64,000 nucleotides of DNA from Candidatus Termititenax sp. (GTDB taxonomy: Bacteria > Margulisbacteria > Riflemargulisbacteria > GWF2-35-9 > DYQY01). Below are positions 47,952 through 48,940 of the stretch, one piece after another. The notes below the pieces were generated by a model, which was given only the letters and a program-made list of their open reading frames with translations, made no database searches and was not told where the DNA came from. Every line of letters begins with the position of its first letter. Within the stretch, counting starts at the first letter, position 1. The position numbers and the translations under genes were made by a program. The DNA is taken from NCBI GenBank assembly GCA_020719045.1, contig DYQY01000004.1, forward strand, positions 268 through 64,267, read 5' to 3'.

Positions 47952-48197
47952 CTAACTAGCAAACATAAATATAAGTATTAACGCAATTACTAGAGAATAA
48001 ATACCAGTTGATTCAGTAACGGCCTGACCAACTAACATCGTTCTAGTAATTAAACCAGCTTGCTCAGGTCTCTTTGAAACTCCTTCACATGCCTTACCTG
48101 CTGCGTATCCTTCACCAACTCCTGGTCCGATAGCTCCTAATCCCATTGCTATACCTGCACCTAATAATGCTGCTGCCTTAACTATTTCTCCGTCCAT
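47952..48197 (-). CDS. atpE: Fo c subunit, single hairpin, Na+-type signature
   Basis: [18 protein letters not shown]...RPE...[11 protein letters not shown]. Confidence 0.95.
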
Positions 48198-48229
48198 TTT
48201 CCTTACCTCCTATTTATTTTTTTACTTCT

Positions 48230-48940
48230 TCAAAATATAAACATCAAAATCATTGCTACTACTAAAGAGTAAATAGCAGTTGATTGCGCTACTGATTGAC
48301 CCAAAAGCATAGTGGTTGTTACCGCTTTGCTTGACTTGGCATTAAATCCTATCGAACTTGTTGCCATCTCCGCAGTTAAACCACAACCAAGACCAGGACC
48401 TATTGCTCCAAACCCCATAGATAGTCCAGCACCCAAAATAGCTGCATTATGAAGTAAAGACTGAGTATGTGTTTGAAAAATCAATAACAACGTAACAACC
48501 AAAGCAAAAATAACAGAAGTCTGCGTAACCGCCTGCCCAATTAACATACAAATCATTAAACCTCCAGAATTCTCAGGTTTACGACCAATACCTTCACAAG
48601 TTGCCCCGACTGCTAACCCAGCACCTACTCCAGGCCCAAGAGCACCAACACCAATACATAACCCAGCAGAAACATAAGCAAACATAGCTGTCATAGAAGT
48701 ATCTCCACCTTTAAATAATAAAATTAAAGATACTAACAAAGCGAAGATACCTGAAGTTTCTGTAACCGCTTGTCCAATAAGCATTGTTCTTAACAAAGTA
48801 CCGCTTTGGTCAGGTTGTCTATTCATGGCCTTAATTGCCTTACCAGCGGCATATCCAACTCCAGCAGCTGTCCCAAGTGCACCTATTCCAACAGCAAGAC
48901 CAGAACCAACATAAGCACCAATTAACCCATAACTTAACAT
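48230..48940 (-). CDS. atpE: Triplicated Fo c subunit (3 hairpins, 6 TM)
   Basis: Three c repeats ending GQAVTETSGIF, GQAVTQTSVIF and GQSVAQSTAIY. Confidence 0.9.
   Translation of the reverse strand: MLSYGLIGAYVGSGLAVGIGALGTAAGVGYAAGKAIKAMNRQPDQSGTLLRTMLIGQAVTETSGIFALLVSLILLFKGGDTSMTAMFAYVSAGLCIGVGALGPGVGAGLAVGATCEGIGRKPENSGGLMICMLIGQAVTQTSVIFALVVTLLLIFQTHTQSLLHNAAILGAGLSMGFGAIGPGLGCGLTAEMATSSIGFNAKSSKAVTTTMLLGQSVAQSTAIYSLVVAMILMFIF

Follow-up and report, generated by a model that had tools for sequence, protein, structure and literature searches.

We identified an F-type ATP synthase operon in Candidatus Termititenax sp. that encodes two different c subunits next to each other, namely a three-hairpin protein with a single site carboxylate (hereafter c3) and a single-hairpin c of the Na+ type. 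It is likely that these two proteins form one hetero-oligomeric c-ring containing an ion-blind block, which would lower the number of Na+ ions per ATP, and the hybrid motor probably moves fewer Na+ per ATP than would be expected from its size. In rotary ATP synthases, the minimum energy on which a cell can live is set by the ion/ATP ratio, which in F-type enzymes has, to our knowledge, been taken to vary almost only via ring size. The one studied exception that we know of is the hybrid ring of A. woodii, which has one blind position, and we know of no studied precedent for two adjacent blind positions in an F-type ring. The preliminary description had regarded a triple-hairpin c with two neutral sites in a bacterial F-type operon as uncharacterised. 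This fits our literature search, which, with the Brandt & Mueller 2015 review outside its scope, found no paper or experiment on F-type c subunits with at least three hairpins. The sequence logos in the ProAD supplement cover one- and two-hairpin c subunits only, and its data tables may list longer ones.

The c3 gene lies at 48230..48940 on the minus strand of the window (the whole stretch of 64,000 nucleotides analysed), between atpB and atpF of the F1Fo operon, and its open reading frame encodes 236 amino acids. Pfam recognises ATP-synt_C (PF00137) in three stretches of this protein (E 5.2e-38), and its AF2 model (pLDDT 95) has six helices that make up three hairpins. The three-hairpin architecture is an annotated-domain fact and not a statistical pattern. 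Alignment of the hairpins, read as helix-1 position / carboxylate position / +1 / +2 / +5, gave V28 / E61 / T62 / S63 / F66 for hairpin 1 (TETSGIF), A107 / Q140 / T141 / S142 / F145 for hairpin 2 (TQTS), and C186 / Q219 / S220 / T221 / Y224 for hairpin 3 (AQST). The site carboxylate is found in hairpin 1 only, with Gln in hairpins 2 and 3; judged by sequence, E61 is live and Q140 and Q219 are ion-blind. The E/Q/Q pattern over three hairpins in a 236-residue c protein, and a first repeat lacking both the helix-1 Glu/Gln and the Tyr, had been described before this analysis, and Pfam and the hairpin alignment bear out both (V28 and F66 for the latter). Among relatives, both blind positions conserve their Gln, with Q140 nearly invariant, and close relatives have K or E at the helix-1 position of hairpin 1. 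Hairpins 1 and 2 have an invariant Pro in the loop, which hairpin 3 has lost. Identity is 33-49% among the three hairpins and 44-47% between them and the single-hairpin c. NCBIfam models of F0F1 c subunits score c3 above their cut-offs (NF009999, 154.5 bits vs a cut-off of 124). An identity as an A/V-type K subunit was rejected, since the V-type K models reach 61.9 bits on c3, far below their cut-off of 211, and the 99%-complete genome gave no match to V_ATPase_I (V-type subunit I).

The single-hairpin c gene (47952..48197, minus strand) follows c3 after a gap of 32 bases within the same operon. Its 81-residue product contains one PF00137 stretch (E 4.7e-18) and the two-carboxylate Na+ motif E29...E62-S63-T64...Y67, and matches the c subunits of F. 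nucleatum (3ZK1) and I. tartaricus (1YCE) with E about 1.5e-22, the GEGY...ESTGIY motif being aligned. The operon is intact and runs on the minus strand in the order atpB-c3-c-F-H-A-G-D-C, encoding subunits a, c3, c, b, delta, alpha, gamma, beta and epsilon. Subunit a (atpB, 48946..49839, 297 amino acids, PF00119 E 2.6e-45) is unusually long, with insertions in the alignment relative to a subunits of 224-240 residues; its essential Arg is retained within SHSFRLFGN. Pfam also identified subunit b (atpF, 47438..47926, 162 amino acids, PF00430 E 6e-27) and subunit delta (atpH, 46896..47438, 180 amino acids, PF00213 OSCP E 1.2e-31). The alpha subunit (atpA, 45373..46881, 502 amino acids) was named by position and similarity, with 54% identity to the alpha of the ordinary operon in this genome, and gamma (atpG, 44512..45369, 285 amino acids) by position, with 22% identity to its ordinary counterpart. 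The beta subunit (atpD, 43105..44496, 463 amino acids) carries GGAGVGKT and shares 60% identity with the ordinary beta. Epsilon (atpC, 42845..43102, 85 amino acids, PF02823 E 4.6e-07 over residues 4-84) consists of the N-terminal beta-sandwich domain only, the C-terminal domain being absent. The preliminary description had suggested that ring composition could act as a gear or brake; we found no sign of separate control of the two c genes. A promoter and terminator scan of 42500-50300 was uninformative, giving 27 promoter-like sites vs 32 expected and 3 terminator-like sites vs 3.4 expected, none of them between the two genes. The operon lacks atpI, and 136 bases separate atpB from the next, divergent gene.

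The best PDB match of c3 by sequence is 4BEM_J, the c1 subunit of A. woodii (phmmer E 1.9e-25, residues 11-155), in an alignment that places TETSGIF on AETSGIF and TQTSVIF on AQTTGIY. The same chain is the best fold match (Foldseek rank 1, E 4.1e-08, TM 0.77 on the target); no solved chain spans all three c3 hairpins, and the best TM on the query is 0.60. These comparisons support c3 as a three-hairpin relative of A. woodii c1, which would form with the single c a hybrid rotor pair like that of A. woodii. The E-then-Q alignment with 4BEM_J also agrees with the statement in the preliminary description that A. woodii has a hybrid ring with a duplicated c1 short of one site. The hybrid F-type rotor that it proposed for the present operon gains support from this homology, from the Na+-type neighbouring c and from the conserved pairing of the two genes described below, with membership of c3 in the ring and Na+ as the coupling ion still the inferred parts.

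In the proposed rotor, Na+ sites would lie between neighbouring hairpins, with the carboxylate and the helix-1 ligand coming from one hairpin and the Ser/Thr, the Thr-held water and the Tyr from the preceding one. With its S220/T221/Y224, hairpin 3 of c3 would supply what the next single c needs for a full site, and the interfaces between hairpins 1 and 2 and between hairpins 2 and 3, which have Gln for Glu, would carry no ion. With Gln at both inner interfaces, each c3 copy would therefore remove two of three ion positions. The E61 of hairpin 1 would pair with the preceding hairpin in a site that has V28 in place of the helix-1 Glu/Gln ligand, and because this ligand is missing the site may bind Na+ poorly or bind H+; we know of no characterised c-ring of mixed specificity. 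As an example, a ring of 11 hairpins with one c3 copy would have 9 sites and require 3.0 Na+/ATP vs 3.67. The lower ratio results from the loss of ion positions and is a matter of arithmetic if c3 is in the ring, and to that extent the earlier suggestion of fewer ions per ATP stands.

Covariation of the site residues supports assembly of c3 into a mixed ring. In a set of 164 distinct multi-hairpin proteins, which together provide 509 pairs of consecutive hairpins, a hairpin has Tyr(+5) only if the next one carries a carboxylate: 81 pairs run from Tyr to a live site and 0 from Tyr to a dead one, and 384 run from a non-Tyr hairpin to a dead site, counts that are not independent because the sequences are related. 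The exceptions are 44 live sites preceded by a hairpin without Tyr, half of which (22/44) belong to the E-Q-E subtype of the phylum. The last hairpin has Tyr in 164/164 of these proteins and the first has Glu in 161/164. The ProAD supplement gives the same "previous hairpin" rule independently, and in the F. nucleatum structure Ser66 and Val63 are contributed by the adjacent subunit (PMC3692424). The rule, with Tyr kept only before a live site, predicts the ring neighbours of each hairpin. In addition, a complex model of c3 with the single c scored an ipSAE of 0.65 (best of 3 controls, 0.00), passing a mark reached by 116/157 solved complexes vs 2/215 mismatches, with at least 99% of contacts common to the runs and a partner pLDDT of at least 85. 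In this model, hairpin 3 is the docking site of the single c, and the interface includes residues 217-222 and 224-225 on the c3 side and residue 62 on the partner side. Because similar c-rings have already been solved, the pass indicates likeness only and may reflect memory.

The survey of atp operons for c proteins of about 240 residues that had been suggested as a check was carried out in 146 genomes of the phylum. In 28/28 complete loci, the gene immediately after the three-hairpin gene encodes a single c with the motif E..E[ST]T..Y, a count that leaves aside two further loci cut by contig ends, and the same pairing is present in 19/22 Desulfobacterales-type loci with 3-5 hairpins. About 30 genomes from 23 genera of the phylum carry full-length c3 orthologs (233-245 amino acids, 40-85% identity). 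Comparison of c3 with a same-genus ortholog gave a dN/dS of 0.075 overall and of 0.07, 0.055 and 0.10 for hairpins 1, 2 and 3, values that are rough because dS exceeds 1. The survey also revealed a graded family of c subunits with 2-5 hairpins and the patterns EQ, EQQ, EQE, EQQQ and EQQQQ, some members being without any carboxylate, which is found in Desulfobacterales as well. Most of the phylum has E-Q-E rather than E-Q-Q. In E-Q-Q-E and E-Q-Q-Q-E proteins, the last hairpins are, outside their own class, nearest to single c (mean best identity 0.65), as read from the class matrix used for hairpin likeness; nearest-neighbour classing recovered orthologs only. Two loci were set aside during the survey. 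A two-hairpin gene (L056) on a contig labelled Thermoplasmata was rejected as an architecture and treated as an interrupted gene, its upstream genes and the N-terminal part of its protein matching Desulfococcus-type loci and the contig having no atp genes after it, and an atpB fragment in genome G059 was rejected as a decayed operon, the fragment being at a contig end. A representative library also contained chains of 434-1139 amino acids with 5-11 hairpins, nearly all with Glu, which are probably a different, archaeal-type group.

Some of these observations can be read in other ways. The operon might supply two enzyme populations with very different gears, one with rings of c3 only and one with ordinary rings of the 81-residue c; four c3 copies, for example, would give 4 x 3 = 12 hairpins, 4 sites and about 1.3 ions/ATP. 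Hairpin 3 could complete the E61 site of a second c3 copy with its S/T/Y, the near-universal first-hairpin Glu and last-hairpin Tyr are equally satisfied by c3-c3 contacts, and the ring rule also fits such a ring sterically. We nevertheless consider separate rings improbable, given that c1, the A. woodii homologue of c3, occurs in a 1:9 mixed ring according to PMC9171764 (PDB 4BEM), that a single c gene comes next in every complete locus, that the last hairpin of the fused forms resembles a single c and that the model docks the single c on hairpin 3, with the caveat on likeness given above. The preliminary description had offered c3 as an assembly scaffold in place of AtpI, that is, a protein that seeds or templates the ring from outside the working rotor, and a pre-formed arc of three hairpins could plausibly nucleate a ring in an operon from which atpI is missing. 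However, the same genome has an AtpZ/AtpI gene pair elsewhere (C18:27951-28552), and in Desulfobacterales two loci (L040 and L055) have AtpZ and AtpI before atpB together with multi-hairpin c genes. According to PMC7911925, A. woodii likewise has AtpI as well as c1, which is itself a ring member. The conserved live first site and last-hairpin S/T/Y of the fused proteins are moreover what a working ring member needs, and we regard the scaffold as very unlikely. It is hardly credible that c3 is a functionless tandem triplication in the course of losing its sites. The loss of two of three carboxylates, a remaining site short of one ligand and the missing loop Pro in hairpin 3 might suggest decay, but dN/dS of 0.055-0.10 in each hairpin, full-length orthologs throughout the phylum, conservation of the blind-position Gln itself and the confident AF2 model all contradict the degeneration that had been named as grounds for discarding the idea. 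The c3 gene is, on these comparisons, not decaying.

The remaining question concerns the direction of work and leaves the mixed ring itself in place. This ring might operate mainly as an ATP-driven Na+ pump, in a low gear like that of a V-ATPase, and build a steep Na+ gradient while an H+-coupled F1Fo does the rest; we hold this to be possible but somewhat doubtful. Besides the complete hybrid operon of Na+ type there is a second complete F1Fo operon, an ordinary one on contig C14, and the genome yielded no match to NuoH of complex I, nor, as noted, to V-type subunit I. Since all relatives in the taxonomic order of this genome keep the ordinary operon, the hybrid enzyme may be accessory here. 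The C-terminal domain of epsilon, which is absent from the hybrid enzyme, inhibits hydrolysis in some bacteria. In addition, fewer ions per ATP would allow a steeper gradient, as argued in PMC9171764. Against a dedicated pump, most c3-carrying genomes of the phylum have 4 PF00137 matches each, and the hybrid operon therefore holds their only c genes; with the C14-type a subunit likewise not found there, the hybrid enzyme must serve whatever those cells need. ATP synthesis is also known for enzymes with V-type c subunits according to PMC9171764. All six of the six Rnf subunits are encoded in the genome, and Rnf could build the gradient, so that the hybrid enzyme may instead make ATP from an Rnf-built Na+ gradient. 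The presence of Rnf matches the acetogen design of Rnf plus Na+ F1Fo, which occurs in A. woodii and C. aceticum (PMC7911925).

If the mixed ring is true, a series whose members have two to four blind positions in a row would allow bacteria to tune the ion/ATP ratio in steps with ring size unchanged, and this series is conserved and widespread, occurring in Margulisbacteria with related loci in Desulfobacterales. A bolder extension, which we think unlikely, is that the number of blind hairpins in c1-like subunits (from E-Q to E-Q-Q-Q-Q) acts as a heritable, quantised Na+ gear, with c3 present in several copies per ring in this genus. Three [c3 + c] units, for instance, would give 12 hairpins and 6 sites, or 2 Na+/ATP, matching the three-fold F1, and the cell would choose between a low-gear Na+ machine and an ordinary H+ F1Fo by the energy available. 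A ring with multiple c3 copies would, if real, reach ratios well below those of any characterised F-type enzyme. The findings also raise the testable question of whether an ion-driven Fo can rotate through at least two adjacent ion-free sites.

Several known systems share features with the hybrid operon. Archaeal A-type K subunits, such as the triplicated subunit of Methanocaldococcus, which keeps two of three sites, resemble c3 in having fused hairpins and fewer sites than hairpins, whereas they belong to A-type operons and to another sequence family, c3 falling far below the V-type K cut-offs. PMC9171764 reports archaeal c subunits with 1, 2, 3 or 13 hairpins. E. hirae NtpK (2BL2), with two hairpins and one site, is the second-best fold match of c3 (E 2e-04), but it shares 24% identity, covers two of the three c3 hairpins and comes from a V/A-type context. 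The N-ATPase (atpDCQRBEFAG) is a second Na+-linked F-like ATPase that some genomes carry in addition to an ordinary F1Fo, according to PMC11738941. The corresponding alt_F1F0 c model gives c3 a score of 130.7, just under its cut-off of 130.85 and below those of three ordinary F0F1 c models, and an N-ATPase identity was rejected on the canonical atpB-E-F-H-A-G-D-C order, the separate OSCP/delta, a subunit that N-ATPases lack or have in fused form, and the lack of AtpQ/R between epsilon and a. The c subunit of F. nucleatum (3ZK1/3ZK2), whose Na+ ligands are Glu32, Glu65, Ser66, Thr67 and Tyr70 (PMC3692424), has a two-carboxylate Na+ site like the 81-residue c but forms a homomeric c11 ring without a fused partner. 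C. aceticum has a fused c1, with Q....ET and then Q....QT, together with one single c (c2), in a Na+ F1Fo beside a Na+-Rnf; its c1 has two hairpins vs three in c3, and its ring stoichiometry is likewise undetermined according to PMC7911925. The closest likeness in sequence and fold is to A. woodii c1 (AtpE1, 4BEM chain J), the partner of the A. woodii subunits named c2/c3. Like the three-hairpin protein, this subunit of an F/V-hybrid Na+ rotor is fused, belongs to an F-type operon and shows Glu (ETSGIF) followed by Gln; its gene lies directly before that of a single-hairpin Na+-type c, and A. woodii also has Rnf (PMC7911925). It differs in having two hairpins in 182 amino acids (about 18 kDa) with one blind position, compared with three hairpins in 236 amino acids and two adjacent blind positions in c3, in the helix-1 Gln of its hairpin 1 (GIGQGF) where c3 has V28, and in an atpI inside the operon (PMC7911925), where AtpZ/AtpI are encoded elsewhere in the present genome. 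In A. woodii, c1 shares its ring with nine single c subunits according to PMC9171764, and it is an arrangement of this kind, extended by one blind hairpin, that we propose for c3 and its neighbour.

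The preliminary description covered two neighbouring minus-strand ORFs, a 236-aa c subunit (c3; 48230-48940) and an 81-aa c subunit (single c; 47952-48197). Both lie in an F-type operon that runs without interruption through atpB (48946-49839, minus strand, 297 aa), c3, single c, atpF, atpH, atpA, atpG, atpD and atpC (epsilon; 42845-43102, minus strand, 85 aa), hereafter the hybrid operon. Pfam recognised subunits a, b and delta/OSCP, the N-domain of epsilon and both c proteins, with three c stretches in the 236-aa one; by NCBIfam, both c proteins fall under F0F1 subunit C and not under V-type K models. 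In our hairpin alignment, the helix-1, carboxylate, +1, +2 and +5 positions are occupied by V28, E61, T62, S63 and F66 in hairpin 1 of c3, by A107, Q140, T141, S142 and F145 in hairpin 2, and by C186, Q219, S220, T221 and Y224 in hairpin 3; the single c has E29, E62, S63, T64 and Y67. The original account of a three-hairpin c with an E-Q-Q pattern (ion-binding residues in hairpin order) was therefore exact.

Several features around the c genes were also recorded. The cytoplasmic loop of c3 hairpin 3 (IGFNAKSSK, residues ~197-207) has no loop proline, a residue invariant in hairpins 1 and 2 (P43 and P122), and relatives in the E-Q-Q clade have a common [FYH]N[AS]x[ST]SK-like loop in hairpin 3. 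In other F-type enzymes this loop region is in contact with the central stalk, so the hairpin-3 loop might set apart a particular position beneath gamma/epsilon. The a subunit has 297 aa, more than the 224-240 aa found both in Desulfobacterales and in the second atp operon of this genome (on contig C14); one insertion, behind the second membrane segment, is common to the window and the other hybrid operons of the phylum, and another of ~29 residues behind the Arg helix occurs in the window's genus only. The epsilon subunit consists of the beta-sandwich domain alone, without the C-terminal helical domain, and the C14-operon epsilon is likewise short (80 aa as called). Divergent from the atp operon, 136 bases from atpB, is a gene for a prepilin-type protein (49976-50458, plus strand) with an N-terminal KKAFTLIELLIV motif. 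At 50849-61793 (minus strand) lie genes for three predicted surface proteins of very large size (596, 959 and 2024 aa); the 2024-aa protein has long internal repeats with calcium-binding-like DTDGDG(L/I)PNW(W/Y)E motifs, and the 596-aa protein ends, by eye, in SLH-like repeats.

The best PDB sequence match of c3 was c1 of the Acetobacterium woodii F-type c-ring (4BEM chain J, E 1.9e-25). The alignment spans hairpins 1 and 2 of c3, with Glu then Gln in both proteins and a nearly identical ETSGIF stretch. A highly confident AlphaFold2 model of c3 from 30 aligned relatives (pLDDT 95, pTM 0.89) has six long helices forming three hairpins. Chain J of 4BEM also ranked first by fold, followed by two-hairpin V-type subunits, and the fold search returned no solved chain spanning all three hairpins (best query TM 0.60). 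Matches of the single c, at E ~1.5e-22, were the Fusobacterium nucleatum (3ZK1) and Ilyobacter tartaricus (1YCE) Na+ rings, with the two-carboxylate motif GEGY...ESTGIY kept. In a complex model, the single c docks on hairpin 3 of c3 with a score of 0.65 (best of three controls 0.00), a mark attained by 116 of 157 solved and by 2 of 215 mismatched pairs; at least 99% of contacts are shared between runs, with a partner pLDDT of 85 or more. Because c-rings have already been solved, this modelled pass shows likeness, not binding.

A site in Na+ rings lies between two subunits, one supplying Glu and the helix-1 Glu/Gln and the adjacent one Ser and a backbone carbonyl, and the Glu is hydrogen-bonded by Tyr and Ser (PMC3692424). 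We examined 164 distinct multi-hairpin proteins, comprising 509 consecutive hairpin pairs, and found the +5 Tyr of a hairpin only where the following hairpin carries a carboxylate. Tyr preceded a carboxylate-bearing (live) hairpin in 81 pairs and an ion-blind (dead) one in none, and its absence preceded dead hairpins in 384 pairs and live ones in 44, counts that overstate independence because the sequences are related. When the hairpins of this set were paired in the opposite direction, Tyr and carboxylate were not sorted. The rule holds in 17 different architectures, the last hairpin has Tyr in 164/164 proteins and the first has Glu in 161/164. The authors of ProAD apply the same "previous hairpin" rule to multi-hairpin subunits (ProAD supplement). 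The rule explains why F66 and F145 of c3 replace Tyr, as a dead position comes next. By the same reasoning, Y224 with S220/T221 would have to precede a live position, and thus a carboxylate-bearing hairpin of another polypeptide, so that the covariation argues for c3 as a ring member.

The observation of c3 is confirmed, and its gene is conserved. Matches at E <= 1e-20 were found in 34 of 146 genomes and 23 of 112 genera of the phylum. At all 28 loci with complete genes, a three-hairpin ORF (233-240 aa) has a single c carrying the full Na+ motif directly after it; two more three-hairpin loci, cut by contig ends, fall outside the 28. The pattern is E-Q-E in 23 of these loci, E-Q-Q in four (the window, two genomes of the same genus and one from another family) and E-E-E in one. 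The E-E-E locus, L030 (G020:C92), encodes a subunit that keeps all three carboxylates. A tree of the first, second and last hairpins clusters the E-Q-Q forms with one E-Q-Q-Q form (support 0.90), and the phylum's E-Q-E/E-E-E forms come out as sister to this cluster (support 0.97). A long a subunit (~283-297 aa) accompanies the hybrid operon in the phylum. Most genomes with the three-hairpin gene have four PF00137 matches each and no C14-type a subunit, so the hybrid operon holds their only c genes. Every genome of the window's own order has the C14-type a subunit, as do 64/146 genomes across the phylum, and both operon types occur together in the window's genus and one further genome of the same class.

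Beyond the phylum, a large protein database (8000 scored candidates of 129-413 aa) yielded 1690 proteins at E <= 1e-5, with named sources mainly Desulfobacterales MAGs. The best 120 include seven three-hairpin proteins, all E-Q-Q, 64 with four hairpins (40 EQQE, 9 EQEE, 4 EQQQ, 4 EEEQ, 3 EEQQ, 4 others) and 49 with five (27 EQQQE, 22 EQQQQ). On genome contigs, a single Na+-type c comes next in 19 of 22 loci with such genes; two others stop at a contig end and one is interrupted. AtpZ and AtpI lie upstream of atpB in the two multi-hairpin loci checked. Locus L056, on a contig labelled as a Thermoplasmata archaeon MAG, is a bacterial-type AtpZ-AtpI-atpB-c locus; its N-terminal part is nearly identical to the Desulfococcus-type loci L054/L055 and all atp genes are lost beyond the second hairpin. 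The contig is probably chimeric or mis-binned. A search of 1.84 billion cluster representatives gave 85 at E <= 1e-30, and three-hairpin forms among the best 150 include 10 EQE, 6 EQQ, 6 EEE and several without any carboxylate. Several of the latter (P0141, P0148, P0175, P0200 and P0238) have S/G/Q at every position and would be fully ion-blind rotor blocks. Positional homology of the hairpins holds throughout the family: first hairpins are like first hairpins, middle Gln hairpins resemble one another and last hairpins resemble single c subunits.

A decaying c3 gene is ruled out by low dN/dS in each hairpin and by conservation of the blind-position Gln residues themselves. Against a same-genus ortholog (85% identity), dN/dS was 0.075 overall and 0.07, 0.055 and 0.10 in hairpins 1 to 3, compared with 0.026 for the single c, all approximate because dS exceeds 1. 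Most likely, c3 is a ring member with three hairpins and at most one ion site. Its last hairpin would supply the missing part of the following single c's site, and a ring of N hairpins with k copies of c3 would have N - 2k sites. For N = 11, this would mean 11 sites and 3.67 Na+/ATP at k = 0, nine and 3.0 at k = 1, and seven and 2.33 at k = 2, as arithmetic for assumed ring sizes and copy numbers. The remaining c3 site has no ligand in helix 1, where c3 has V28 and near relatives have K or E, and by the ProAD criterion it would not count as Na+-specific.

The window's genome (G000; 1.75 Mb, 99% complete) has a second complete F1Fo operon, locus L065 (C14:36307-42352, minus strand), encoding a (236 aa), c (94 aa), b, delta, alpha, gamma, beta and epsilon. 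Its c is ordinary, with the Glu present and the helix-1 Na+ ligands absent. Identity between the two operons is 60% for beta, 54% for alpha, 26% for a and 22% for gamma, which marks them as old paralogs or xenologs. An AtpZ-like (84 aa) and AtpI-like (116 aa) pair lies apart from both operons (C18:27951-28552, plus strand), adjoining a small FlhB-C-terminal-like ORF. The genome also encodes two membrane pyrophosphatases and all six Rnf subunits in two loci, which are ~33 kb apart (rnfB-rnfA, C3:3926-5377, minus strand; rnfE-rnfC-rnfD-rnfG, C3:38350-41616, plus strand). No match to NuoH, oxaloacetate-decarboxylase beta or V-type subunit I was found in this 99%-complete genome. Since Rnf is present, a scheme like that of A. 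woodii is plausible by analogy, in which a Na+ gradient made by Rnf would be used by a low-ratio Na+ F1Fo. It is equally possible that the hybrid enzyme runs as a Na+ pump in the window's genus, which also has the ordinary F1Fo.

A full-text literature search found no paper on an F-type c with at least three hairpins, and an earlier catalogue of longer forms may exist. The accessible text of a 2026 preprint describes F-type rings as predominantly single-hairpin and cites A. woodii as the only mixed example. A generic mention of hairpin domains numbering two or more appears in ProAD, whose supplement illustrates c subunits of one and two hairpins only, and a 2026 mBio paper describes relatives of Desulfatiglans with two to four atpE copies, citing Brandt & Mueller 2015. 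New here are the Margulisbacteria lineage, the split between E-Q-Q and E-Q-E inside one phylum, the presence of an ordinary F1Fo alongside, a first site that is incomplete and the Tyr covariation rule, and c3 is of clear interest for bioenergetics. The A. woodii ring, according to PMC9171764, combines one c1 with nine single c, and Clostridium aceticum, according to PMC7911925, has a c1/c2 gene pair as in A. woodii, which belongs to a Na+-dependent enzyme next to a Na+-Rnf. The best reading of c3 is as an extended, three-hairpin form of this known hybrid-rotor c1 subunit.
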